From Patescibacteria group bacterium (GTDB lineage Bacteria; Patescibacteriota; Patescibacteriia; UBA2591; CALHIP01), in assembly GCA_026417895.1 (NCBI GenBank), contig JAOACJ010000003.1:1-61804 (forward strand): a DNA stretch of 61,804 nucleotides. Direction: 5' to 3'. Each line of letters opens with the position of its first letter. Within the stretch, counting starts at the first letter, position 1. Position numbers and translations under genes: made by a program. The notes below the pieces were generated by a model. It saw only the letters and a list, made by a program, of their open reading frames with translations, did no database searches and had not been told where the DNA came from. This document shows positions 1 to 55,005 of the stretch, in pieces.

Positions 1-270
1 GTTCGGATTTCGTTCAGGAGATGGAGCCAGACAGGAAGTTTTGAAAAATTAGTGTTTGTTTCCGCCTCGCTGCTTCGCGGCTCGGTGGCCAAATTGCCCC
101 AAATTTACGAGTCTTCGCCGAATTCGAAAGTGATTAATCTGGCCCAAAATTATCCTGAAATTTTCGAACAGCCAAATTTACTGAAAAAAAAGAGACAATT
201 CGAGAAAGCAATGCCCGAATTATCTCCTTTGCTCCGGCGGCAGGACTCGAACCTGCAACCCACTGCTTAA
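1..270 (+). other. Open reading frame entering from the left window edge and ending antisense inside tRNA-Asn; may be the 3' end of an upstream gene or spurious
   Basis: Frame 1 has no stop from nt 1 to TAA 268-270. The last residues (LRRQDSNLQPTA) are simply the antisense translation of the tRNA. No recognisable family. Confidence 0.2.
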
Positions 271-304
271 CAGGCAGTTGCTCTAACCATTGAGCTACGC
301 CGGA
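232..304 (-). tRNA. tRNA-Asn(GTT)
   Basis: Acceptor stem TCCGGCG/CGCCGGA, discriminator G, anticodon loop CT-GTT-AA, T-arm GGTTCGAGTCC; CCA not encoded. Confidence 0.97.
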
Positions 305-321
305 ATAAATACCCAAAGGAC

Positions 322-344
322 ACTTTAAACTCTAAACTTTAAAC
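322..344. repeat. Heptamer tandem array, downstream flank of the four-helix-bundle remnant
   Basis: ACTTTAA-ACTCTAA-ACTTTAA-AC read directly. Confidence 0.75.
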
Positions 345-366
345 AGAAAAATTATACACTCTTTTA

Positions 367-522
367 TTATTTTTGCAAGAAACGACGAAAACCAGCTAGC
401 TGAGCGATCAATTTTTCAGCTTTTTCTGTTTTAGGAATTTTGCCCAGAATTTGTTTGATCGCTTCTCTCCTAAATTTTCTGGCATCTTTATCAATCTGCC
501 AATTTCTGAATTGAAATCCCAT
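367..522 (-). pseudogene. Internally deleted four-helix-bundle (23S rRNA IVP-like) gene, 51 aa, not in the ORF track
   Basis: Translates MGFQFRNWQIDKDARKFRREAIKQILGKIPKTEKAEKLIAQLAGFRRFLQK*. The N-terminus resembles the F.F.DW.VYKDA start and the C-terminus the EKL..QL.GF..FL end of this family. The central DQ.RRA..SI..NIAEG core is absent. Confidence 0.6.
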
Positions 523-523
523 A

Positions 524-551
524 AGTTTATAGTATAAAGTCTAGAGTTTAT
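524..551. repeat. Heptamer tandem array, upstream flank of the four-helix-bundle remnant
   Basis: AGTTTAT-AGTATAA-AGTCTAG-AGTTTAT read directly. Confidence 0.75.
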
Positions 552-578: not shown

Positions 579-1688
579 TTAATAATAATCTTTTATTTTC
601 TCAACGCCCTTCATTTCACGAATTCTTTCTAAAGCTTTGGCCTCAATTTGACGAATTCTCTCACGGGTGACATTAAATTTCTTGCCAACTTCTTCAAGGG
701 TGTGAGCAATGCCGTTAACTAAACCAAACCTCATTTCTAAAATTTTCCTCTCTCGAGGAGGTAATTCTTTCACAATTTCTGTGACATATTCTTTTAAAAT
801 TTTTAAAGCGGCGGCGCGGTCTGGAGTAATCGTTTTTAAATCTTCAATAAAATCACTTAAGACTGCATCTTTATCTTCATCTCTACCCACTGTTGCATCT
901 AAAGAGACTACATCTTGAGAAATCTCTAGCAAGCTTCTTACTTTTTCTATATCTTCTCCGGCTTCGGCAGCAATTTCCTCTGGTGTTGGTTCACGACTCA
1001 ACATTTGGGTCAAAGATCTTGAAGCACGCTGTAAGCGATTTAAAACCTCAACCATATGAACGGGAATTCTAATTGTTCGTGAATGATCGGCTAGTGCCCG
1101 AGTTACGGCCTGAGTGATCCACCAGGTAGCATAGGTAGAAAATTTATAGCCCTTTCGCCAATCAAATTTTTCCACCGCCCGAAAAAGCCCAAGATTACCT
1201 TCCTGAATTAAGTCAAGAAAAGTTAAGCCATAACCAACAAATTTTTTGGCAATGGAAACAACTAATCTCAAATTAGCCTCAACTAATCGTTGCATGGCGG
1301 CTAAATCTCCTTTTTCTTTTCTTTTTGCTAGCTCAATTTCTTCCTCAGGTGTCAAAAGCGGAACCTTACCAATTTCTCTGAGATACATCTGGATAGAATC
1401 GATGGAAATTTTATCTAAATCAAAAAACTCGGGCGTAAATTCAGTTTTTGCTTTCGGCTCTTTTTTTTCCACTTCTAATAAAGAATCTTTTGATTCAATT
1501 ATTTTAATGCCGGCCAGATCTAAACGATCAAGCAAAGATTCTAGTTCGTCGAGGTATTTTACAATATTGTTGGGAAAGGCAAAAATAATTTCATTTTCGG
1601 TAACAAAACCACGGCTATGCCCCTTCTTCATTAAGGCTTCAATTTTTTCCGGTGAGAAGACTGAATATTTTCTCTTTTTTCTTGGCAT
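579..1688 (-). CDS. rpoD: RNA polymerase primary sigma factor (sigma70)
   Basis: Region 1.2 [11 protein letters not shown], region 2 [12 protein letters not shown] and [29 protein letters not shown], region 4 [24 protein letters not shown]; directly downstream of dnaG. Confidence 0.98.
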
Positions 1689-1689
1689 A

Positions 1690-3498
1690 TTATAAATATT
1701 TTTTTAATTGTTGGGTTAATTGATTCACTTCTTCGCTTAACACTTTTATTACTTCCTGATCTTTTTCTTTTTCTGCCTTTTTTAAGTTTTCACTCATTAA
1801 ATTTAATTTTTTAAAAATAAAATTCTTCTTTATTTTTTTAAAAAGGAATTCTAATTCTTTATCAACCGTTTTTTTATCCAGATTAACAAAATCTTTCTCA
1901 ATGGCTAGGATCAAAAAATCTATTGTCGATTTAGTCTCTTCGTCTAAATCTTTAATAAATTCTTCGTAGCTAATCAATTTATTCTCCAAAGAAATAAGAC
2001 TATAGCATTTTTTTAAATGGCTAAGAATTTTTTTTAATTTTTCATTCGTAAAAATTTCTTCATCTAATTCTTCGTAAAAAGAAGAAACTTGCTCGGGAAA
2101 TTTAATTAGCAACCCCAAAAATCTTTCTTGCGTCTCTAATTCTTGGTTTTTTTCTTGAATAACTGGTGTTTCTTCTTTTACTTCTGATTTTTTTTGATTA
2201 ATTTTTCTTAAACTTTCTCTTAAAATTTCATAAGAAAGATTGGCTTTTTCGGCTAACTTTTTTAACCAGAAATCTTGTTCAATCAAATTACCAATTTTAG
2301 CAATGATGGGTAAAAGAATCCTGGCGACTTTTTTCTGATCCTCAACTTGATGGGGGTTAAAATGAGTAAAGGCAGAGGAAAAATAATATTCCATAATCGG
2401 TTGAGCTCGGCTAATCGCTCCAAACCAAAGTTTTTTGTTCTCTCGAATACATTCGTCTGGATCTTTACCGGCCGGAAGTTGAATGATCTTCACATTCATT
2501 TCCTCGGTCAAAGCAATATCAATGCCCCTTTGCGTAGCTGTTTCACCAGCCGGATCTAGGTCAAAGGCTAAAAATAAATTTGAGGAATATCTTTTCAAAA
2601 TTTTTACTTGCGTTAAGGTTAGGGCTGTACCAGAGGTAGCGACAACATTTTTTGTGCCGGCTTGCCAAGCAGTAAGCAAATCCATATTGCCTTCAACCAA
2701 AATAGCAAAATTTTCTTTTTTAATTGCTAGTTTGGCCTGATTCAATCCATAAAGCAAGCGAGATTTGTTATAAATTAAAGTTTCTGGAGTATTAATATAT
2801 TTCGGCACCCCTTCTTTTTCTAAAGAAGGCAAAATCCGGCCGGAAAAGCCAACCGGCTGATTAAAGATGTCAAAAACAGGAAAAATAATTCGACCACGAA
2901 AACGGTCGTAATAATTAAAGGTTGGTTCTTGGATATTAGTTGTCGGTTCTTTAACAATCAAACCTGCTTCTTCGATGTCTTCGGTCTTAAAACCCTTTTT
3001 TGTAAGAAAGGTATAAAGAAGGTGCCTTTGGTGAGGAGCGTAGCCAATTTGCCATTCTTTAATTGTTTTTTGAGAAATTTTTCTTTCTTCAAGATATTTT
3101 CTGGCGCTTTCGCCACCTTTAGCATTTAAAAGATACCAATGGTAGTATTGAGCTGCTTCACGACAAATATCTAAAAGTTTTGTTCTTTTACTCGTCAAAT
3201 GATAATCGCGCGTTTTTAAAATAATCCCGGCTTTCTTGGCTAAAATTCTTAAAGCCTGAGGAAAGTCAACACCTTCAATTTCCATAATAAAATCAAAAAG
3301 GCCCCCTCCTTTGCCGCAACCGAAACACTTCCAAATTTGTTTTTCTGGCGAGACAAAAAAACTCGGTACTTTTTCTTTATGAAAGGGACAAAGAGCTTTC
3401 ATGTTTATCCCGGCTGGTGTAAGACGAACGTATTCAGAAACAATCTCAACTAAATCCAACTTTGCTTTTATCTCATCAATCGGACTAAGGTTGGCCAT
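1690..3498 (-). CDS. dnaG: DNA primase
   Basis: Zn finger CPFHKEK..SF and [36 protein letters not shown] and FDLDPAG. Confidence 0.98.
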
Positions 3499-5271: not shown

Positions 5272-5356
5272 CGGAGGGTGTGGGAATCGAACCCACAAAT
5301 CCCTTGCGGGATCCACGCTCTCCAGGCGTGTGCCTTACCATTCGGCGCAACCCTCC
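5272..5356 (-). tRNA. tRNA-Ser(GGA)
   Basis: Acceptor GGAGGGT/ACCCTCC, discriminator G, anticodon loop CT-GGA-GA, long variable arm, T-arm GGTTCGATTCC. Confidence 0.96.
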
Positions 5357-5456: not shown

Positions 5457-5520
5457 TTAGAGAGTCGTCAATTTAGAGAGTCGTCAATTTAGAGGGTCGT
5501 CAATTTAGAGGGTCGTCAAT
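5457..5520. repeat. 4 x 16-bp tandem direct repeat
   Basis: TTAGAGAGTCGTCAAT x2 then TTAGAGGGTCGTCAAT x2, with no spacers. Confidence 0.97.
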
Positions 5521-5609: not shown

Positions 5610-8012
5610 TTATTTAATTTTTGAAATTTCTAGAGTTGTTTTTAAAATTGTATCTGGATTTAAAGAGATTGAATCAATTCCTTCTTTGACTAAAAATTTA
5701 GCAAAATCAGGAAAATCACTTGGTGCCTGACCGCAAATACCAACCTTTCGACCATAACGATGGGCGGTTTTAATTAAATGACGAATTAATTTCTTAATTG
5801 CTTCATTTCTCTCATCAAAAAGATGAGAAACTAAATCTGAATCACGGTCAAGGCCTAATGTTAGTTGTGTCAAGTCATTTGAACCAATCGAAAAACCATC
5901 AAAAATTTTAGAAAATTCTTCAGCAAAAATAATATTGGAGGGAATTTCCGCCATAACATAAACTTTTAATGGTTTAAGTCCTTTTAATTTTTTTCTTAAA
6001 CTAAATGAATCAATAATTTTTAAAACCTTCTTTCCCTCTTCCACTGTTCGACAAAAAGGAATCATCACCACAACATTATCTAAACCAAAAACTTCGCGAA
6101 CTTTTTTAATAGCTAAGCATTCTAAACCAAATGCCTCTTTAAACTTTTCATCATAATATCTTGAAGCACCGCGCCAACCAATCATCGGATTAGCCTCTTT
6201 AGGTTCATATTGAGCACCGCCGATTAAATTGGCATATTCATTGGTTTTAAAATCAGAAAATCTGACAATAACCTCTTTCGGATAAAAAGCCGCACAGATT
6301 TTACCAATACCTTCGGCTAATTTATCAATAAAATACTGCTTCTTATCTTGATAGCCAAAAGTAAGTTGATCAATTTGTTTTTTGATCTTCGGCGGTTGTT
6401 GCTTATAATTAATGAGGGCTATGGGATGTATTTTAATTTGATTGGCAATGATAAATTCCTCTCGGGCTAAACCAACGCCATCGTTAGGTAAAAAAGATAG
6501 ACTAAAAGCCTGATCGGGTTCGCCTAAATTCATCATTATTTTTATCTTCGGTCTTTTTAATTTGGCGAGATTAATTTTTCTAATTTTAAATGGCAAAAGC
6601 CCCTCATAAATAAAACCTCTTTCTCCTTCAGCACAAGAAACAGTGACTTCTTGACCATTTTTTAAAATTTTACTTGCCTTACCTGTGCCGACAACACAAG
6701 GTACACCAATTTCCCGTGAAACAATAGCGGCATGAGAGGTTCGGCCACCACTATCGGTGATAATAGCCGAAGCAATTTTCATCACTGGTTCAAAATCTGG
6801 ATTAGTTACTCTAGCCACTAGCACTTCTCCTTTTTTAAAATTAACCAACTCTTTGATATTTCTTATCACCCTCACCTTACCTTGACCAATTTTAGAACCA
6901 ACGGCTAAACCTTCAAGGATGGGTTTACATTTTTGATTTTTGATTTTTAATTTTTCTAAAACATATTCCTCAAGATAATCGACTTTTCTTCTTGAAACAA
7001 CAGTTTCCGGTCTGGCTTGTAAAATATATAACTTTTTATCTTTTCCATCTTTGGCCCATTCAATATCCATTGGTCGTCCATAGTGTTTTTCAATTAAACA
7101 AGACCATCTGGCCAAAGTTAAAATCTCTTCATCAGTTAAAACGAATTTTTTCTGTTCTTTTTTCAAAACAGCCACATTTTTTGTTCCGCCTTGATGATTA
7201 TAAATCAAGCGCCATTCTTTTGTACCCATTTTTTTCTCAATAATTGGTTGAAAGCCATTTTTTAAAGTTTTTTCAAAAACATAATATTGGTCAGGATTAA
7301 TTTTCCCTTTGACAATATTTTCTCCTAAACCATAACCAGCATTAATTAAAACGACATCAGGAAAGCCTGTTTCCGTGTCGCATGAAAACATAACACCTGA
7401 ACAAGCCAAATCGGAACGAACCATTTTTTGGACACCAACTGATAAAGCAACTTTTAAATGATCAAAACCCATATCTTCTCGATAAGAAATAGCTCGATCA
7501 GTAAAGAGAGAGGCAAGGCATTTTTTTACAGCCAAAAGCAGTTCTTTTTCACCGCGGATATTTAAAAACGACTCCTGTTGACCGGCAAAAGAAGCATTTG
7601 GCAAATCTTCAGCCGTGGCTGAAGAACGGACAGCCACGTCTAAATTTTTTGTTTTATACTTCTGACAAAGTTTTCGATAAGCCCGGATAACTTCTTTTTC
7701 CAATTCTTTTGGAAACTCCGTTTTCAAAATTAAATCTCTAATTTTCGCTCCCCTTTCTTTAAGGTTTCTGATATTTTTCCTTTCTAATCCTTTTAAAATT
7801 TTTACAATCTGAGATTTGAGATTTGATTTTTTCAAAAATTGCCAATAAAAAAAATCGGTGGTAGCAAAACCATCGGGAATATTAATCTGTTTGCCTAAGT
7901 GTCGCATCATCTCGCCCAAAGAAGCATTCTTACCGCCAACCAAGGAAATGCTTTTCATGCTTATTTCTCTGTACCAAACAATTAATTTTTTGGCCATCAT
8001 TTCATTAATCAA
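5610..8012 (-). CDS. ppsA: Phosphoenolpyruvate synthase
   Basis: VGGKNASLGEM, VAVRSSATAEDLP.ASFAGQQ, ILQARPETV, GGRTSHAAIVSRE, FSIGSNDLTQL, GICGQAPSD; true start may be a few codons downstream. Confidence 0.97.
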   Translation of the reverse strand: MINEMMAKKLIVWYREISMKSISLVGGKNASLGEMMRHLGKQINIPDGFATTDFFYWQFLKKSNLKSQIVKILKGLERKNIRNLKERGAKIRDLILKTEFPKELEKEVIRAYRKLCQKYKTKNLDVAVRSSATAEDLPNASFAGQQESFLNIRGEKELLLAVKKCLASLFTDRAISYREDMGFDHLKVALSVGVQKMVRSDLACSGVMFSCDTETGFPDVVLINAGYGLGENIVKGKINPDQYYVFEKTLKNGFQPIIEKKMGTKEWRLIYNHQGGTKNVAVLKKEQKKFVLTDEEILTLARWSCLIEKHYGRPMDIEWAKDGKDKKLYILQARPETVVSRRKVDYLEEYVLEKLKIKNQKCKPILEGLAVGSKIGQGKVRVIRNIKELVNFKKGEVLVARVTNPDFEPVMKIASAIITDSGGRTSHAAIVSREIGVPCVVGTGKASKILKNGQEVTVSCAEGERGFIYEGLLPFKIRKINLAKLKRPKIKIMMNLGEPDQAFSLSFLPNDGVGLAREEFIIANQIKIHPIALINYKQQPPKIKKQIDQLTFGYQDKKQYFIDKLAEGIGKICAAFYPKEVIVRFSDFKTNEYANLIGGAQYEPKEANPMIGWRGASRYYDEKFKEAFGLECLAIKKVREVFGLDNVVVMIPFCRTVEEGKKVLKIIDSFSLRKKLKGLKPLKVYVMAEIPSNIIFAEEFSKIFDGFSIGSNDLTQLTLGLDRDSDLVSHLFDERNEAIKKLIRHLIKTAHRYGRKVGICGQAPSDFPDFAKFLVKEGIDSISLNPDTILKTTLEISKIK

Positions 8013-10399: not shown

Positions 10400-11710
10400 T
10401 CAAGAAATTTTTAATGAAGTTTTCCACAGGAGACCTAAACTCAACCAGAATAAAATTATACCAAAGGAAAGAGAAAAAAGCCAATGGTCAAAAAGACCGA
10501 CAACTAACAGGGGAAAGAAAATAGAATGTAGAATAGAAAATTTTGAAAGAGAATAAAATAAAATGAAAAGAAATAAAATCAAACCGAGAATCCCTAATTC
10601 GGCTAAAACGAGTAAATAGATATTAGGTATTGGTTGGTAATCCCAAACAGAAAGGTTCGGATATTTTTGGGCAAGGTGAAGGGTATAATTTCCCAAACCC
10701 ACACCAAAGAGAAAATTTTCTTGAATCACTTTTTGACTTTGTTGAAAACTGGAAATTCTTTCGCTCAGAGAAATTTTCTCTAGTCTTCCCTTTAGTTGGG
10801 CTCTTGTTATCAAATCATGAACAAAAAAACCACCAAAGATTAAAGCAGCAATCAGGACTAAACCAAAAAATTCAAAAAATGGTGTCCGAAGATGGGCTAA
10901 ATTCTTTTTTAACAACACTAAACTAAAAATAATAATAGTTAAAATTAAAGAAACCAATCCTGCCCTTGAGTAAGTTAACAAAAGACCGATCGCAATCAGA
11001 GAGGTGGCTAAAAGAAAAAAATATTTTTGCCAAGTTTTTTGAGTGAGAAAATAAGCAAGGAAGGCGATAAAGATAACAAAAACTAAAAAACCAGCCAGGA
11101 TATTAGGATGAGGCAATGAACCATAAATTCTTAAAAGTCGACCACCACCCACCTCAATAACGGAAACACCCGCCTGGGCTGGATCTTGTGCTGCCATACC
11201 TAGCCATTTTGAAGAAAAAACTTTTTGTTGAATAAATTGACTTAAACCCAAGAAAAATTGAACCAAACCTGCTAAAACTAAAGTAAAACCAGCTTTTATC
11301 AAATCAAAATTAATTTTCTGAAGAAGAAAAAACAAAATTACGCTTTGACAAATCCTTAACCACCAGTAAAAAGATAGGTTTCTATCTTTTGCCCAGAAAG
11401 TAGAAGAAATAGTAAAGAGCAAAAAAATTATTACAAGAATATAGAATTTAGGATTTTGAGTTTTAAATTTTGAATTTGTTTGAAAATTAGAAATTGAAAA
11501 TTGAAAATTTTTTGAAATCAGTTTCTCTAAACAAAATAATAGTAAAAGAATAATGAAAACAATATCAATCGCGTATAAAGAAATCGTTCCCCATTCCCAA
11601 TATCCCCCATTCAAAACCCCTTCTTTCAAAATCAACCTCGTCTGCCAAGGCAATAAGAAAAGAAAAAGATAGAAAAAGTATTCAACAATAAGATCTAATG
11701 ACCTTTTCAT
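10400..11710 (-). CDS. O-antigen ligase/polymerase-family membrane protein
   Basis: Multiple TM segments, R.YG..PHPN.LAG, LLLTYSRAG, ER and GVGLGNY, H-replaced PNIYLLVLAELG. Confidence 0.85.
   Translation of the reverse strand: MKRSLDLIVEYFFYLFLFLLPWQTRLILKEGVLNGGYWEWGTISLYAIDIVFIILLLLFCLEKLISKNFQFSISNFQTNSKFKTQNPKFYILVIIFLLFTISSTFWAKDRNLSFYWWLRICQSVILFFLLQKINFDLIKAGFTLVLAGLVQFFLGLSQFIQQKVFSSKWLGMAAQDPAQAGVSVIEVGGGRLLRIYGSLPHPNILAGFLVFVIFIAFLAYFLTQKTWQKYFFLLATSLIAIGLLLTYSRAGLVSLILTIIIFSLVLLKKNLAHLRTPFFEFFGLVLIAALIFGGFFVHDLITRAQLKGRLEKISLSERISSFQQSQKVIQENFLFGVGLGNYTLHLAQKYPNLSVWDYQPIPNIYLLVLAELGILGLILFLFILFYSLSKFSILHSIFFPLLVVGLFDHWLFSLSFGIILFWLSLGLLWKTSLKIS
11443..11510. repeat. Two oppositely oriented heptamer arrays in frame within the O-antigen ligase gene
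   Basis: (AGAATTT AGGATTT TGAGTTT TAAATTT TGAATTT) then (AAAATTA GAAATTG AAAATTG AAAATTT); encodes NFQFSISNFQTNSKFKTQNPKF. Confidence 0.8.
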
Positions 11711-14995: not shown

Positions 14996-16687
<1,692 letters not shown>

Positions 16688-16698
16688 TTACGATAAAA

Positions 16699-19614
16699 TT
16701 ATCTTTCTTTTTTGCCTAAAACGAGAAATAGTTTTTCTCTTTCAATCTCTATTTCTTTTTTTTGTTTATTTAACAGTTTTTCCCTTCTTTCTATCTTGCT
16801 GGCCAGTGTCTGTTTTTTAAGGATGGCTAAATTTTTTTCGATAATTTTTGTCAATTTTTTTGAATCTGTTTGATAATAAATCTTGACTTTATCTTTGAGG
16901 GTCAATTTTTTCTCTTTTCGCCAAAAATTAATTTGTCGTACCAATTCTCTCAGCACCCCTTCTTCTCGGAGTTGGGGTGTTAAGGTAAAATCAAGTTCTA
17001 CTGATTTTTCGGTCGTTGGTTGATAGATAATTTTTTTAATATTTAATTCATCCAAGATGATCTGTTCCAAATTTCTCTCTAATTTCTTGAGTTGAGGAAA
17101 TTTAATGGTAATTTTATTCAATGGCTGACGAAGAGGAATTTTGTTTTTCGCTCGTTGTTCAAGACCAAGGTGGGTAATTTCCCTAATTATTTTCATTTGA
17201 TCAATAATTTTTTGTTGAAACCAGTCTTGGCGCAGAGAGGGCCAATTTTCTAAATGGACAGATGTGGCTGGTCCTTTTATTGTTTGATAAATATACTCGG
17301 CTAAAAAGGGAGTAAAAGGAGCTAATATTTTAGCTAGATTAAGGATGATGTATCTCAAAGTTTTTAAGGCTGTTAATTTTATCTTTCTTTTTTCACTTTT
17401 AAATCTTTCACGGCTTCGCCGTAAATACCAAGTCGATAGTTCATCAATAAAATTAGCTAGAGAGCGGGCGGCATTGGTAATCTCATATCGCTCTAAACAA
17501 TCACTAACATCTTTAATTAAAAGATTAAATTTAGCAACAATCCAGCGATCAAGAACATGAACAAGATCTTGAGTAGTAAGATTAGTAATTTTTATTTTCC
17601 CTCTATACATCTCGTAAAAAGAAACAACATTCCACAAAATCAAAAAAACTTTTTTCATCACCTCCTCAACTTGTTTTTCAGAAAAACATTTTGCTTCACC
17701 GGGCTGGTTAATGGTATAAAAATAAAAACGTAAAGTATCAGCCCCATATTGATTAATAATTTTTTCTGGTTCAACAACATTACCTCTCGATTTACTCATT
17801 TTTTCTCCTTTCTCATCTAAAACTAATCCATGGCAAATAACGTTTTTGTAGGCTGGTCCTTTTTCTAATAAAGTGGAAATGGCTAAAAGAGTATAAAACC
17901 AACCGCGGGTTTGATCTATACCTTCAGCGATATAGTCGGCCGGAAAAACTTCATTTTTTTCATATCTTTTTTTATTTTCAAAAGGATAATGGTGTTGGGC
18001 AAAAGGCATGGCCCCGGAGTCAAACCAGCAATCAATAACTTCCGGCACTCTTTTCATTTTTCCACCGCATTTTTCACACTGGAAGACAAATTCATCAATA
18101 TAGGGCCGATGTGGATCTTGTACTTTGCGACCACTTAATTTTTCTAATTCTTCAAACGAACCAATCACTTTGGTATTATCGCATTTTTGAGATTCGAAAT
18201 TCGAGGTTTGAGATTTACCAGTTTGGCACTGCCAAACTGGTAAAGGTGTTCCCCAGTATCTTTCTCTTGATAAAGCCCAATCTTTCACTTCCTTAAGCCA
18301 AACACCGAAACGTCCTTCTTTGATAAAAGAGGGAACCCAGTTTATTTTTTCATTGTTTTTAATCAATTCTTCTTTTATCTTCGGCTCACTCATTCTAATA
18401 AACCATGATTTTTTCGCGTAATATAAAAGTGACGAATCGCAACGCCAACAAAATGGATAATCATGATGAATTTTTTCTAATTTCCATAAAATATTTCTCT
18501 TTTTTAAATCATCAATCACATCTTTGTCTGCCTCTTTAACAAACTTCCCTTCACCAATAATTCCTTTAGCCATATTTCCATCAGGATTGACAGTCATTAA
18601 GATGGGAAAGGTAGGTAAATTTTGAATTTTGAATCTTGAATTTTGAATTTTAATCACTTCCATATCTTCTTCACCGAAAGCTGGAGCAATATGGACAATA
18701 CCCGTTCCGTCTTCCATTGAAACAAACTCGCCAGAGATAACTTCATAAATCCGTCCTTCAACTTGAGCAGGATAAAGTCCTTCATATTTTTGACCAATTA
18801 AATCTTTACCTTGATATTTTTCAACAATTTCAAAGTTTTCTAAAACATTAAGTCGTGGTTCAGCCAAGATAAAATATTCATCATTAACTTTTACTTTAAC
18901 ATAAGTCGCTCCTGGATGAATGGCTAAAGCAACGTTGCCTGGCAATGTCCAAGGCGTGGTCGTCCAGACAAAAAAATAAGTATTGGGGTCATCAATTTTT
19001 TTAAATTTAAGATAAAGAGAAATGTCTTCAACATTTTCATAACCCAGAGCTACTTCATGGGAAGAAAGGGTCGTCCCACAACGCGGACAATGAGGAACAA
19101 CTTTGTAATCTTGATAAAGTAAACCCTTTTGCCAAATCTGTTTTAGAATCCACCAAACTGTTTCAATATAATAATTCTCATAAGTAATGTAAGCATTTTT
19201 GTAATCCAGCCAAAAGGCAATTCTTTCAGAAAAATTTTCCCATTCTTTTTTATATTGCCAAACCGATTCTTTACATTTCTTATTAAACTTAGCAATACCA
19301 TATTTTTCAATCTCCGGTTTTCCGCGCAAGCCCAATTTTTTTTCCATCTCCAATTCGACTGGTAAACCATGCGTATCCCAACCAGCCTTTCTTTCAACAT
19401 AATAACCTTTCATTGTCTTATAACGACAAATGATATCTTTGAAAATTCGAGATAAAACATGATGAATACCAGGTAGGGCATTGGCGGTTGGGGGGCCTTC
19501 AAAAAAGACAAACGGTCTTCCCCTTTTTGTCTTCTTTAAAGTTTTTTCAAAAATTTTACTTCTTCGCCAGAAGGCTAAGATTTTCTTTTCAATTTGTGGA
19601 AGGTTAATAGACAT
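16699..19614 (-). CDS. ileS: Isoleucyl-tRNA synthetase (type 2, archaeal/eukaryote-like)
   Basis: EGPPTAN..PGIHH, GWDTHGLPVE, WTTTPWTLP, SRERYWGTPLP, EGIDQTRGWFY, KMSKS; lacks the type 1 C-terminal Zn finger. Confidence 0.97.
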   Translation of the reverse strand: MSINLPQIEKKILAFWRRSKIFEKTLKKTKRGRPFVFFEGPPTANALPGIHHVLSRIFKDIICRYKTMKGYYVERKAGWDTHGLPVELEMEKKLGLRGKPEIEKYGIAKFNKKCKESVWQYKKEWENFSERIAFWLDYKNAYITYENYYIETVWWILKQIWQKGLLYQDYKVVPHCPRCGTTLSSHEVALGYENVEDISLYLKFKKIDDPNTYFFVWTTTPWTLPGNVALAIHPGATYVKVKVNDEYFILAEPRLNVLENFEIVEKYQGKDLIGQKYEGLYPAQVEGRIYEVISGEFVSMEDGTGIVHIAPAFGEEDMEVIKIQNSRFKIQNLPTFPILMTVNPDGNMAKGIIGEGKFVKEADKDVIDDLKKRNILWKLEKIHHDYPFCWRCDSSLLYYAKKSWFIRMSEPKIKEELIKNNEKINWVPSFIKEGRFGVWLKEVKDWALSRERYWGTPLPVWQCQTGKSQTSNFESQKCDNTKVIGSFEELEKLSGRKVQDPHRPYIDEFVFQCEKCGGKMKRVPEVIDCWFDSGAMPFAQHHYPFENKKRYEKNEVFPADYIAEGIDQTRGWFYTLLAISTLLEKGPAYKNVICHGLVLDEKGEKMSKSRGNVVEPEKIINQYGADTLRFYFYTINQPGEAKCFSEKQVEEVMKKVFLILWNVVSFYEMYRGKIKITNLTTQDLVHVLDRWIVAKFNLLIKDVSDCLERYEITNAARSLANFIDELSTWYLRRSRERFKSEKRKIKLTALKTLRYIILNLAKILAPFTPFLAEYIYQTIKGPATSVHLENWPSLRQDWFQQKIIDQMKIIREITHLGLEQRAKNKIPLRQPLNKITIKFPQLKKLERNLEQIILDELNIKKIIYQPTTEKSVELDFTLTPQLREEGVLRELVRQINFWRKEKKLTLKDKVKIYYQTDSKKLTKIIEKNLAILKKQTLASKIERREKLLNKQKKEIEIEREKLFLVLGKKER
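18186..18216. repeat. Heptamer array in frame in ileS, between two Cys residues
   Basis: TTTGAGA TTCGAAA TTCGAGG TTTGAGA; encodes KSQTSNFESQK. Confidence 0.75.
18620..18654. repeat. Heptamer array in frame in ileS
   Basis: TTTTGAA TTTTGAA TCTTGAA TTTTGAA TTTTAAT; encodes KIQNSRFKIQN. Confidence 0.85.
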
Positions 19615-30616: not shown

Positions 30617-30623
30617 ATAAAGA

Positions 30624-30674
30624 TTAGTTATTAGTTATTAGTTATTTGGTTATTTGGTTATTGGTTATTGGTTA
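30624..30674. repeat. Heptamer/octamer array spanning the iscS stop and the iscS-iscU spacer
   Basis: TTAGTTA x3, TTTGGTTA x2, TTGGTTA x2. Confidence 0.92.
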
Positions 30675-40609: not shown

Positions 40610-42193
40610 ATGACTTCGCACAAACAAAAAATTATCAAAATTATTCAAGAACTCTCTCAAAAAAAGTTTCAATCTGGCGAGAGTTTTTTATCTTTGTTCA
40701 GAAAATTAACTAAGAAATATCAAATATCACCCCCAAGTTATGTCGAAATTCTCTCGTCTTATAAATTACTGCGATCGCAGAAAAAAATAAGACGTTGTTT
40801 ATTTTTTGAGGAAATGTTAAAAAAAAGACCGGTTCGCTCTCTTTCTGGTGTAGCCGTTGTCTCTGTTTTGACCAAACCTTATCCCTGTCCTGGCCAATGC
40901 CTTTATTGTCCAACTGAAAAGGGCTTTCCAAAAAGTTATTTGGCTGGCGAGCCAGCCGCCGAAAGAGCTCGTCTTTTGAACTATAATCCTTATTTACAGG
41001 TTAAAAAAAGGATTGAAACTTTACAAAAAACAGGACATTCAACCGACAAAATCGAATTGATTATTATCGGCGCCTCCTGGAGCGCTTATCCAAAAAGATA
41101 TCAAGAATGGTTTATTAAAAGATGTTTTGATGGCGCTAATTTTTCAGCAAGTAAAAAATTAACGGAGGCACAGAAAAAAAATGAAAAAGCAAAAAATAGA
41201 ATTATTGGTATTAGTGTGGAAACACGACCGGATTTAATCAGTTTAAAAGAAATAAAAAGAATGCGGGAATTGGGAATAACGAAGGTTGAGTTAGGTGTCC
41301 AAACACTCGATGAAAAAATTTTAACTAAGAATCAGCGTGGTCATGGTTTAAAAGAAATTGTTGAAGCAACAAAATTGTTGAGAAATGCTGGATTCAAAAT
41401 TTGCTATCATCTTATGCCCGGACTTTATGGCTCGACACCCCAAAAAGATTTGGTAGTTTTTAAAAAATTATTTTCTGATTCAAATTTTCGACCAGATTAC
41501 TTAAAAATTTATCCTTGTGTGGTAACCAAGGGTTCAAAACTTTATCAATTATGGAAAAGAGGAAAATACCAACCTTACGACGATAAAACTTTAATCAATT
41601 TATTGGTCCAGATAAAAAAAATTGTCCCTCCTTACGTGCGAATCATCCGAATCTTCCGCGATATTCCTTCACCAAAAATTTTTGGCGGAACAAAGATCTC
41701 CAATTTACGCGAGGTTGTCAAAAAAGAAATGGCAAAAAGGGGGTTGAAATGTCAATGCATCCGTTGTCGTGAAATTAAAAATTTAAAATTAAAAATTAAA
41801 AATTTAATTCTGGTCAAAAGAGAATATCAGGCTAATAATGGTAAAGAAATTTTTCTTTCTTTCGAGGATAAAAAAAATGACAAGATTCTTGCTTTTCTTC
41901 GTCTCTATCTGCCTCAATCTTCTATTTTAAACTCTATCTTCAAGGTTCTCAAAAAATCAGCTATCATTCGTGAACTCCACAGCTACGGCGAAATAGTAGA
42001 AATCGGTAAAAGAAAAAAGGGGGCCACCCAGCATCAAAACTTAGGCAAAAAACTTGTCCGCAAAGCCGAGCAACTGGCAAAAAAAATTGGTGCTAAAAAA
42101 ATAGCTGTTATTTCCGGCGTCGGCGCTCGCCAATATTGGCGAAAAATTGGTTATAGACTTCAACAAAGTTATATGGTCAAAAATATTGGATAA
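40610..42193 (+). CDS. elp3: Elp3-family radical SAM/KAT tRNA U34 carboxymethyltransferase
   Basis: RSLSGVAVVSV, CPGQCLYCP, PKSYL.GEPA, ETRPD, VELGVQT, PDYLKIYP, RIFRDIP, C.CIRCRE, IRELH.YG, QH..LG, VISGVG.RQYWRK.GY. Confidence 0.95.
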   Translation: MTSHKQKIIKIIQELSQKKFQSGESFLSLFRKLTKKYQISPPSYVEILSSYKLLRSQKKIRRCLFFEEMLKKRPVRSLSGVAVVSVLTKPYPCPGQCLYCPTEKGFPKSYLAGEPAAERARLLNYNPYLQVKKRIETLQKTGHSTDKIELIIIGASWSAYPKRYQEWFIKRCFDGANFSASKKLTEAQKKNEKAKNRIIGISVETRPDLISLKEIKRMRELGITKVELGVQTLDEKILTKNQRGHGLKEIVEATKLLRNAGFKICYHLMPGLYGSTPQKDLVVFKKLFSDSNFRPDYLKIYPCVVTKGSKLYQLWKRGKYQPYDDKTLINLLVQIKKIVPPYVRIIRIFRDIPSPKIFGGTKISNLREVVKKEMAKRGLKCQCIRCREIKNLKLKIKNLILVKREYQANNGKEIFLSFEDKKNDKILAFLRLYLPQSSILNSIFKVLKKSAIIRELHSYGEIVEIGKRKKGATQHQNLGKKLVRKAEQLAKKIGAKKIAVISGVGARQYWRKIGYRLQQSYMVKNIG

Positions 42194-44654: not shown

Positions 44655-45632
44655 TTATATTTTTTTCAAAATTCTTCCCAATTGATAGAGTCTATACCAA
44701 AAATAGTTAAAAATAGAGTCAAAAGTACCAGGATATTCTTTGATTTCTCCTCCAAACCCTTTTTTAAAACGCGTTACACCTGGCCATTTTTTTTCATCAA
44801 TCCCCCAAAAATCATAATATTTTAAACATAATCGTTTAGCTTCTTTGATTGCTGTCCAATGTAATAGGTAAGGAGCCATTACATTTCGGTGTTGATGATC
44901 AGAAGCGCCGTGAAGATAGGTAGCGGTATCAGCAAAAAAAATCATTAAATTACCGGCAATTATTTTTCCTTGATATTCAGCGAAAAAAAGTTTGATAAAA
45001 TTTTTATCTAATCGAAACATTTTTCGATAGTAATTAAAAGGGTGAGTCTGGAACCTATCCCGCTGGGCTGTCTGGGATAAAAGCTTTAAAAAGATTTCAA
45101 TCTCTTCTTCACTTTGACCAATTTTGATTCTCACTCCCTTCTTCTCTGCCAATTTTATATTATACCTTGTTTTTGGATGCATATTTTCTAAAATTTCCTT
45201 TTCGGATTTGGTCAAATCAAGTAAAATAGTCTTTGAAGGTTGGAGGTCGTTAATTTTTTTAAACGAAAAATTGAAAATTGAAACTTGAAAATTGTCTAGT
45301 GGCTCGAAACGCAGAAAGATAATATTCTCTTTTTTGGCCAAATCGTTAATTTTTCTAAAAAATATTTTTATTGTCTCAATATTATTCTCTCTTAAAATAG
45401 GTCCGCGCGGACAATATAGATAGCTTTTCTTTATTGGTAATAACATTCTTATCAGAAGAGTGATGCCAATTAATTGATCGTTTTTAAAAAATCCTAATCG
45501 CCAAATTTTTCGACCTAAGCTTTCTTGAAAATCACCCCATTCCCAACTTTGAAGAAATGGCGCCATTTCAAAGGAAGAAATAAAAGTCTGCCAAACTTCT
45601 TTTTCTTTAATTTCTTTAATTTCCATAGCCAA
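44655..45632 (-). CDS. FemABX/MurM-family lipid II aminoacyl transferase
   Basis: FLQSWEWG, YCPRGP, KTRYNI.LAEKKGV, YLHGAS, YDFWGI, GVTRFKKGFGG. Confidence 0.92.
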   Translation of the reverse strand: MAMEIKEIKEKEVWQTFISSFEMAPFLQSWEWGDFQESLGRKIWRLGFFKNDQLIGITLLIRMLLPIKKSYLYCPRGPILRENNIETIKIFFRKINDLAKKENIIFLRFEPLDNFQVSIFNFSFKKINDLQPSKTILLDLTKSEKEILENMHPKTRYNIKLAEKKGVRIKIGQSEEEIEIFLKLLSQTAQRDRFQTHPFNYYRKMFRLDKNFIKLFFAEYQGKIIAGNLMIFFADTATYLHGASDHQHRNVMAPYLLHWTAIKEAKRLCLKYYDFWGIDEKKWPGVTRFKKGFGGEIKEYPGTFDSIFNYFWYRLYQLGRILKKI

Positions 45633-54481: not shown

Positions 54482-54492
54482 TGATAAAGATT

Positions 54493-55005
54493 TTAATTTT
54501 TAATTTTTAATTTTCTAAATTTGTTAATTTCGTAGATAGCAATGCCAGTCGCCACTGCTACATTTAAAGATTCTTTCTTGCCATACATTGGCAGATAAAT
54601 AATTTTATCAGCTCTTTTTAATAAACTCTGACAAACGCCCTTGACTTCGTTGCCAACAATTAAAAGTAAAGGAAATTTTGGTCTTAATTTTGTATAGCAA
54701 ATACTTTTTTTGGTTTGTTCTAAAGCAACAATAAAAAAATCTTCCTTTTTTAATTTTTCCACGATTCGCCAACTCTGCCAACAGTGTTCCCAAGGAACTA
54801 TTTTTTCGGCACCTAAAGCTGTCTTGTGTATTTTGATATTTAATTCTCTTTCTCTTTCTTTTCCTGTTTGCCGGCTAGCAAGAGAGGTAATACCGCCAAG
54901 ATAAATTTTATCAATACCAGCTGCTTCAGCAGTCCGAAAAATTGCCCCAACATTAAAAATCGAACGAAGATTATCTAAAAGAAGATAAAATCTTTGGTCG
55001 GCCAT
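54493..55005 (-). CDS. TrmH/SpoU-family RNA 2'-O-methyltransferase
   Basis: LDNLRS.FNVGAIFRTA.A.G, KTALGAE, GNEVKG, LPMYGKKESLNVAVA.GIA.YE. Confidence 0.93.
   Translation of the reverse strand: MADQRFYLLLDNLRSIFNVGAIFRTAEAAGIDKIYLGGITSLASRQTGKERERELNIKIHKTALGAEKIVPWEHCWQSWRIVEKLKKEDFFIVALEQTKKSICYTKLRPKFPLLLIVGNEVKGVCQSLLKRADKIIYLPMYGKKESLNVAVATGIAIYEINKFRKLKIKN

Follow-up and report, generated by a model that had tools for sequence, protein, structure and literature searches.

Introduction

Between rpoD and a tRNA-Asn gene of the window (the whole 61.8-kb stretch of DNA analysed here) lies a 51-codon open reading frame (ORF) that is bracketed by two arrays of 7-nt repeats in opposite orientation. 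What is this ORF, and why is it enclosed in this way? In our view, interval 322-558 is very likely a decaying copy of a cassette of the intervening-sequence (IVS) type situated outside rRNA, in which a four-helix-bundle gene is enclosed by inverted heptamer arrays.

In the IVS in helix 45 of the 23S rRNA of Coxiella burnetii, an S23p ORF occupies the loop above a 28-bp stem formed by terminal inverted repeats (PMC4990558). Three tandem GACAGAT heptamers, the number of which depends on the strain, precede the ATG of this ORF, and RNase III cuts at the first repeat (PMC4990558). The Coxiella ORF is decaying, with a 176-bp deletion in strain AuQ01, and rRNA intervening sequences with S23p ORFs are also found in Leptospira, Brucella and Xanthomonas (PMC4990558). 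The function of the four-helix-bundle family (TIGR02436/PF05635) is unknown (PMC11270868, PMC4990558), and the S23p domain has been noted, as one of uncharacterised function, in the rRNA insertions of CPR bacteria (PMC11270868).

Locus organization

The window has a G+C content of 33%. The closest relatives of its rpoD product are proteins from Patescibacteria (CPR) metagenome bins, and a search of public runs returned the sequence from one run only, which is a DNA metagenome of hot springs. On the minus strand the genes are ordered dnaG, rpoD, the 51-codon ORF and tRNA-Asn (GTT), as shown in Table 1, where related loci are designated by L numbers. The initial annotation had described a 51-codon ORF between rpoD and tRNA-Asn with opposed 7-nt arrays on either side, and both observations are borne out; the units, NTAAACT upstream and GTTTARA downstream, are reverse complements of each other, and the two arms are 80-89% complementary.

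Table 1. Features of the rpoD-tRNA-Asn interval and other period-7 arrays of the window.
Feature	Position	Strand	Details and basis
Intact tRNA-Asn (GTT), immediately 3' of the cassette	231-304	-	ARAGORN; Rfam RF00005, 74.9 bits
Small hairpin GUGUCCUUUGGGUAU, between the downstream array and the tRNA 5' end	309-323	-	Fold
Downstream array (3' arm)	322-344	-	GTTTAAA GTTTAGA GTTTAAA GT; TRF: period 7, 3.3 copies
Closing stem (predicted), 16 bp	5' strand 535-550, 3' strand 326-341	-	MFE and centroid
Sigma-70-like promoter TTGCAA-16-TATAAT	351-378	-	Consensus match only, 10/12
Remnant ORF, 51 codons	367-522	-	ATG 522-520, TAA 369-367
Deletion junction CAGAA	424-428	-	Alignment to undeleted relatives
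Upstream array (5' arm), 5 units	558-524	-	ATAAAAT ATAAACT CTAGACT TTATACT ATAAACT; ends 1 nt before the ATG
A+T-rich hairpin over the rpoD stop codon	555-585	-	Arms 555-568 and 572-585, 93% complementary; conserved in L133
rpoD (sigma-70), upstream neighbour	579-1688	-	Pfam domains of orthologues; 74-82% identity to L081, L133, L182
dnaG, precedes rpoD	1690-3498	-	
Period-7 arrays in tgt	15222-15283, 15573-15596		
Period-7 array in ileS	18618-18651		
Period-7 arrays in other long conserved ORFs	6929-6955, 11436-11509, 41772-41804, 45267-45294, 54491-54530		

Hairpins stronger and richer in G+C stand at the position of the small pre-tRNA hairpin in L133, L160, L163, L166, L170 and L132. The promoter-like site overlaps the last codons of the ORF and is directed toward the downstream array and tRNA-Asn, and promoter-like sites occupy the corresponding place in L133, L166, L170 and the empty site of L081. 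No GC-rich terminator was found 3' of the remnant ORF. At gathering thresholds Rfam gave no known RNA family in the cassette; it likewise gave no rRNA in the window, and the element sits between rpoD and tRNA-Asn rather than within an rRNA helix.

A Shine-Dalgarno-like motif is present in just two of 31 window genes. Its absence from the ORF is therefore uninformative, and we rejected it as a mark of non-translation. In several window genes TATAAT-like hexamers lie no more than about 25 nt from the start codon, for example at the starts 1688, 3498, 31954 (33633-side), 39309 and 46278. Together, the rarity of Shine-Dalgarno motifs and the hexamers near gene starts suggest leaderless or short-leader mRNAs.

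Identity of the open reading frame

Curated models and word-indexed searching were insufficient to identify the ORF, for which an exhaustive phmmer search combined with synteny was needed. Against Pfam and NCBIfam the 51-residue product had no match at E <= 10, and in a word-indexed search of 5.8 billion protein clusters it matched itself only, with no other short-form protein. The exhaustive phmmer search of 1.84 billion representatives yielded, besides the ORF itself, only P0002 (E = 2.8e-12), an intact protein of 122 residues to which the ORF aligns in two stretches. P0002 and the read-through product of L133 score 83-88 bits against PF05635 (cut-off 33.8) and 75-82 bits against TIGR02436 (cut-off 24), and P0002 also matches structure 2GSC (XCC0516, pentameric).

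We built a custom profile from 109 full-length relatives. Residues 1-34 of the ORF fall on profile positions 2-35 with 33 bits, and for residues 33-51, on positions 102-120, the score is 10.9 bits. The missing positions, 36-101, hold the conserved Q..RA..S..NIAEG motif, and the part deleted from the ORF takes in most invariant columns, Q40 through D83, of the family alignment. Both ends are thus homologous to full-length members and collinear with them, as descent from such a gene would have it. At the level of sequence, this confirms the ORF as the N-terminus of a PF05635/TIGR02436 four-helix-bundle gene ('S23p', 23S rRNA IVP) fused to its C-terminus, a fusion that had been proposed in the initial annotation and that both the profile and the DNA alignment uphold. 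The two halves are matched by our profile but missed by Pfam and NCBIfam. Intact orthologues at the site pass both curated cut-offs and match the solved family member XCC0516 (PDB entry 2GSC), and intact P0002 does so as a whole protein; the window ORF, which retains about 52 of about 120 family positions, falls short of the cut-offs and is missed by both models.

The Avd protein of diversity-generating retroelements (DGRs; NF033474, PF22296) has a distantly related four-helix-bundle fold. P0002 scores below threshold against the Avd models, with 27.8 bits (cut-off 80) and 16.6 bits (cut-off 40), and there is no reverse transcriptase, template repeat or variable repeat near the cassette. With the scores so far under the cut-offs and no DGR parts nearby, we rejected the gene as a DGR component.

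The internal deletion

Alignment of the window DNA with L133 and L160 leaves one clean gap. Undeleted relatives have the sequence (C/T)AGAA at both breakpoints, the two copies being 201 nt apart in L182 and 200 nt apart in L133, a gene with a 1-nt frameshift of its own, and the window keeps a single CAGAA (428-424). Read against these relatives, the alignment shows a 201-nt in-frame deletion (67 codons) between short direct repeats (C/T)AGAA, which removed the core. A microhomology-mediated loss of the core had been proposed earlier with its junction at GAAAAA-GCT-GAAAAA; deletion between short repeats stands, but the microhomology is CAGAA. The motif GAAAAAGCTGAAAAA just 3' of the CAGAA junction belongs to the native C-terminal sequence, and the undeleted L133 gene has it too; it was rejected as the junction for that reason.

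We saw no full-length variant of the remnant ORF within the same sample. Most probably, what remains of the gene no longer has a function, and the 51-codon ORF has stayed open by chance.

The rpoD-tRNA-Asn site in related loci

Alignment of the rpoD-tRNA-Asn interval among relatives revealed full-length, broken, deleted and empty states. An intact gene directly follows rpoD, and is itself followed by tRNA-Asn where the contig allows, in L160/L161, L163, L166, L167 and L170. The gene is a pseudogene in L133 (ATT start, frameshift and TAA for Gln) and in L182 (frameshift and stop), and it has suffered the internal deletion in the window. The site is empty in L081, which has a 41-nt spacer with a promoter-like TTTACA-17-TATAAT, and in L009, L018 and L086.

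The window, L081, L133 and L182 form one clade with rpoD identities of 74-86%, so that three kinds of decay and one full loss fall inside a single sub-clade. As L081 shares this clade with the three occupied sites, its empty spacer is best read as a secondary loss. The synteny of the gene after rpoD spans lineages whose rpoD sequences are 55-60% identical. On the retained codons dN/dS is 0.14 against the relatives, with dS saturated at about 1.3, which indicates that purifying selection acted on the gene during most of the divergence and that the decay is recent. The pattern indicates decay that was independent in each lineage.

In another lineage, L132 has at this same site units of the upstream and downstream types about 25 nt apart, together with the usual hairpin, and may be a vestige of the cassette that has lost the ORF. 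Judged from the units, the assignment is plausible, but the two arms do not pair significantly (z = -0.7).

Inverted heptamer arrays

The heptamers are specific to the ORF flanks. A scan of the 61.8 kb for AGTTTANAGTTTANAGTTTA with up to three mismatches gave six overlapping matches, all at the two flanks, compared with an expectation of 0.41, and none of 100 shuffles reached six. When the interval is folded the borders close the ORF into a stem-loop, the stem including one G.U pair (z = -3.6; none of 200 shuffles equally stable). In L160 the arrays likewise form the closing stem, which has about 30-35 paired positions with bulges; in the L133 copy the arrays no longer pair in the fold. Individual z-scores against shuffles are modest at several loci.

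As is the case in the window, all of the syntenic relatives have arrays before the start codon. Period-7 arrays stand on both sides of the gene at all occupied sites and are missing at the empty sites, and the inverted arrays are supported as part of the cassette. Seven is the best period on both flanks in nine of 11 four-helix-bundle loci, compared with one of 54 control genes of the window.

The unit sequence itself differs between lineages. The window's relatives have TAAAC-type units, L167 has GATAAC/GTTATC and L008 has TAGTTTG/CAAACTA. A four-helix-bundle gene in a pilus operon (L173) has ACATTTG/CAAATGT arrays, and L185, upstream of a tRNA-like sequence with an ARAGORN tRNA-Tyr about 530 nt further on, has ACACCTG/CAGGTGT. 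The units of L175 (after ftsK) and L183 are 8 nt long. Throughout nine loci the consensus upstream unit is the reverse complement of the downstream unit at five to six of seven positions. Cognate flanks pair with a mean energy of -28.7 kcal/mol, compared with -16.5 kcal/mol for non-cognate flanks taken from loci with other units (Mann-Whitney p = 1.7e-6), and the cognate partner ranks best in ten of 14 loci. Shared reverse-complement 6-mers were dropped as a metric because the genome is so A+T-rich that they are useless, with controls averaging five shared. The comparison between loci shows that the complementarity of the arms has been kept while the unit sequence has changed. After position 321, in the downstream arm, an additional ACTTTAA unit is present in another contig of the sample, which fits slippage of whole units.

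The strand on which such pairing might act is less clear-cut. Among transition-type mismatches of the stem, read on the sense strand, A.C outnumbers G.U by 25 to 8, the opposite of what is predicted for a wobble-tolerant stem of sense RNA, and the antisense duplex is more stable than the sense duplex in nine of 13 loci. In view of the wobble result, we do not claim RNA-level pairing as shown. In addition, the promoter-like site at 351-378 could place the two arrays on separate primary transcripts, and transcripts of tRNA-Asn may start there. The A.C and antisense bias, together with a promoter-like site between the arrays, call for caution over pairing as sense RNA. A motif scan of the 61.8-kb window found no RNase III gene. 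That the arrays pair as RNA, that RNase III processes the stem and that the stem has any function are matters that we infer. Tentatively, we propose that the stem is processed as sense RNA, for which the case is nearly balanced; a role as a hairpin at the DNA level or in antisense is rather unlikely.

Comparison with rRNA intervening sequences

The window cassette and the Coxiella IVS share four properties. Both have a PF05635 ORF in the loop; in both, the termini are complementary and can pair into a long stem, of 28 bp in Coxiella and of 16 bp in the window; in both, tandem heptamers directly precede the start codon, with a copy number that varies between strains of Coxiella and, in the downstream arm, by one unit within the sample of the window; and both ORFs undergo reductive evolution, with 176 bp lost in AuQ01 and 201 nt in the window. 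These common features of ORF family, terminal stem, heptamers before the ATG and ORF deletion are the reason that we describe the element as an IVS-type cassette outside rRNA. Its sporadic distribution is also like that of rRNA intervening sequences.

There are differences as well. The window cassette lies between rpoD and a tRNA gene, and its relatives in other contexts that are also not rRNA. Its heptamer arrays are found on both sides and themselves form the stem, its units are unrelated to GACAGAT and its host belongs to a Patescibacteria (CPR) lineage. RNase III excision has been demonstrated in Coxiella and is a prediction for the window cassette. Since the architecture is IVS-like, yet the location in rRNA by which the class is defined is lacking, we regard the element as a variant of the IVS kind.

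Short tandemly repeated repetitive (STRR) heptanucleotides are found in the intergenic DNA of heterocystous cyanobacteria. They resemble the present arrays in being tandem 7-nt repeats of bacterial intergenic regions, a likeness by description only, and to our knowledge they have not been described as inverted pairs around a specific gene family. In the limited literature that we searched, there was no description of four-helix-bundle cassettes of this kind outside rRNA, nor of inverted heptamer arrays around four-helix-bundle genes in Patescibacteria.

The explanation that we favour is as follows. A cassette would have been inserted in the spacer of approximately 40-60 nt between rpoD and tRNA-Asn. 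In this Patescibacteria clade its gene would be a long resident of the spacer, in the order dnaG-rpoD-four-helix-bundle gene-tRNA-Asn, and in the window's own sub-clade it appears to be in the course of being lost. In the window, profile positions 36-101, about 67 codons, were removed by deletion between two CAGAA copies. The arrays of an intact cassette would pair and close the ORF in a stem-loop, as do the inverted repeats at the ends of 23S rRNA intervening sequences, and by analogy with these the stem would be a substrate of RNase III. The length of the arrays would shift by slippage, whole units at a time. The stem, the small pre-tRNA hairpin and the promoter-like site for tRNA-Asn that overlaps the 3' end of the ORF would be what has outlived the gene.

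Alternative interpretations

The likeliest alternative, and the one set out in the initial annotation, is that the arrays act as DNA, either as terminal inverted repeats or as single-strand hairpins of a mobile or recombination-prone cassette, of which the window would hold a non-autonomous, shrinking copy. We consider this unlikely, although several observations point toward it. The cassette is present or absent at one site within a clade with rpoD identities of 74-86%, including the clean empty site of L081. The four-helix-bundle tree joins L133 and L182 to L161, L163 and L166, leaving out L167 and L170, whereas the rpoD tree joins L133 and L182 to L170; the two are incompatible and both have high neighbour-joining (NJ) bootstraps, but they are simple NJ trees of eight taxa. 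Between L133 and L161 the four-helix-bundle proteins are 75% identical and the rpoD products 57%. The same architecture recurs at unrelated sites (in a pilus operon, after ftsK and beside tRNA-Leu or tRNA-Tyr), G.T-type mismatches on the bottom strand would fit a strand-specific DNA hairpin, and selfish elements appear to accumulate at the site, namely GIY-YIG ORFs, tRNA group I introns and serine-recombinase elements.

Against this, the cassette has no transposase or integrase, and the 61.8 kb contain a single family member and AGTTTAN-type arrays nowhere else, so that the several copies with identical terminal inverted repeats expected of a MITE-like element are not found there. The synteny after rpoD is stable over deep divergence, no target-site duplication is readable because the spacers are too diverged, and there are no relatives in viral contigs (IMG/VR), for which reason we also rejected a viral origin of the cassette. 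Any transfer could equally have come about through recombination between homologous sequences, namely the conserved 3' end of rpoD and the tRNA; we offer this as a suggestion, and such a route would require no enzyme encoded by the element. From the long synteny, descent at the rpoD site would be largely vertical; the incongruent trees and the family members at unrelated sites suggest that the cassette may also have been transferred. The initial annotation had called the cassette mobile, and mobility is suggested by these last two observations but is opposed by a synteny that holds across rpoD identities of 55-60%.

It is improbable that the arrays are protein-binding sites, possibly for the pentameric four-helix-bundle protein with one unit per subunit, or phased promoter-like elements regulating the ORF, rpoD or tRNA-Asn, with their complementarity being secondary. 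The 3-5 units per array would suit a family whose solved member is a homopentamer (five chains in 2GSC; PMC4990558). The upstream arm also stays A/C-rich while mismatches fall in the downstream arm, as if the two were separately constrained, and TAAAC-type units yield TATAAA/TATAGT-like hexamers. However, the units differ wholly between loci (TAAAC, GATAAC, ACACCTG, TAGTTTG and 8-mers) while the proteins keep conserved motifs, with 15 invariant alignment columns that include most of NIAEG. Units other than the TAAAC type are unlike -10 boxes, and the sole property common to all loci is that the upstream unit is the reverse complement of the downstream unit.

That the 51-residue product is a functional mini-protein kept by selection, a two-helix hairpin in which helix 1 is joined to the end of helix 4, is very improbable: the deletion is in frame with the ATG and stop codon retained, and dN/dS is low, but with dS saturated that value mainly reflects the long time that preceded the deletion, one deletion in three would be in frame by chance, the conserved core with the NIAEG motif is gone, neither protein search gave another short form and the three closest relatives have pseudogenes or no gene.

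Other repeats and neighbouring elements

The window contains further period-7 arrays (Table 1), toward which the remnant had at first been taken as an intermediate. This does not hold, and we rejected these orphan arrays as cassette relics: their units are different (AATTTTG, AAATTAA, ATTAGTT), they lack an inverted partner, and the majority lie within conserved genes, in frame with the coding sequence. The in-gene arrays (AATTTTG, AAAATTG, AAATTAA) are read as KIQNSKF or IKNLKLKIKN-type stretches, and TGT orthologues of related Patescibacteria have similar stretches at both positions, which more distant orthologues are without. One intergenic array, 30623-30674, consists of three ATTAGTT, two ATTTGGTT and two ATTGGTT units; it lies between a cysteine-desulfurase-like gene and an IscU-like gene, immediately ahead of the start of iscU, and has no inverted partner anywhere in the window. 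At 5457-5520, between tRNA-Ser (5272-5356) and the next gene, there are four perfect or near-perfect tandem copies of the 16-nt sequence TTAGAGAGTCGTCAAT.

Around the tRNA that follows the cassette we note several small elements in related loci. A group I intron (RF00028; 87.5 and 71.2 bits) interrupts this tRNA in L008 (5580-5775) and L182 (1878-2164), and one is probable in L163 after 2920; ARAGORN misses tRNAs interrupted in this way, and the window tRNA-Asn has no intron. Small GIY-YIG ORFs immediately precede tRNA-Asn in L010 (2820-3140), L024 (7040-7291), L132 (4150-4455) and L167 (3187-3447). In L010 and L132 the GIY-YIG ORF is itself preceded by a sequence like the 5' part of a tRNA, with a hairpin replacing the D-loop. 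It appears that small selfish elements are especially frequent in the spacer between rpoD and tRNA-Asn. Genes for large serine recombinases directly follow the tRNA in L161 (1680-3305), L170 (2467-4107) and L178 (2487-4154), that of L161 being accompanied by a phage Rep-O-like gene, and these suggest integrated elements on the 3' side of the tRNA.

Conclusions

The S23p/four-helix-bundle family is very large and has been without a known function since rRNA intervening sequences were described, and the origin and spread of these sequences are likewise unexplained. The present locus shows the full IVS architecture outside rRNA, with an ORF in the loop, a stem of tandem heptamers, slippage and ORF decay. 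Within a Patescibacteria clade this architecture has been kept at a single chromosomal site, with co-variation between its two arms. It also accounts for an 'unannotated ORF' overlooked by curated models.

As a speculation that we think decidedly doubtful, S23p genes and inverted 7-8-nt arrays would together constitute one self-contained hairpin cassette that colonises conserved, highly transcribed spots across bacteria, such as the end of rpoD, the leaders of tRNAs and the helices of rRNA. Recognition of the arrays might fall to the pentameric protein, at about one unit per subunit, which might also take part in processing or spread of the cassette. If this were true, rRNA intervening sequences would merely be the best-known landing site, and the arrays would evolve by slippage of units with compensating change in the opposite arm.

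The general architecture exposed by this locus is of higher interest than the remnant itself. Intact, frameshifted, internally deleted and lost copies and a possible ORF-less vestige form a natural series for testing, and the many independent unit sequences offer the means to test the roles of the stem and of the protein.
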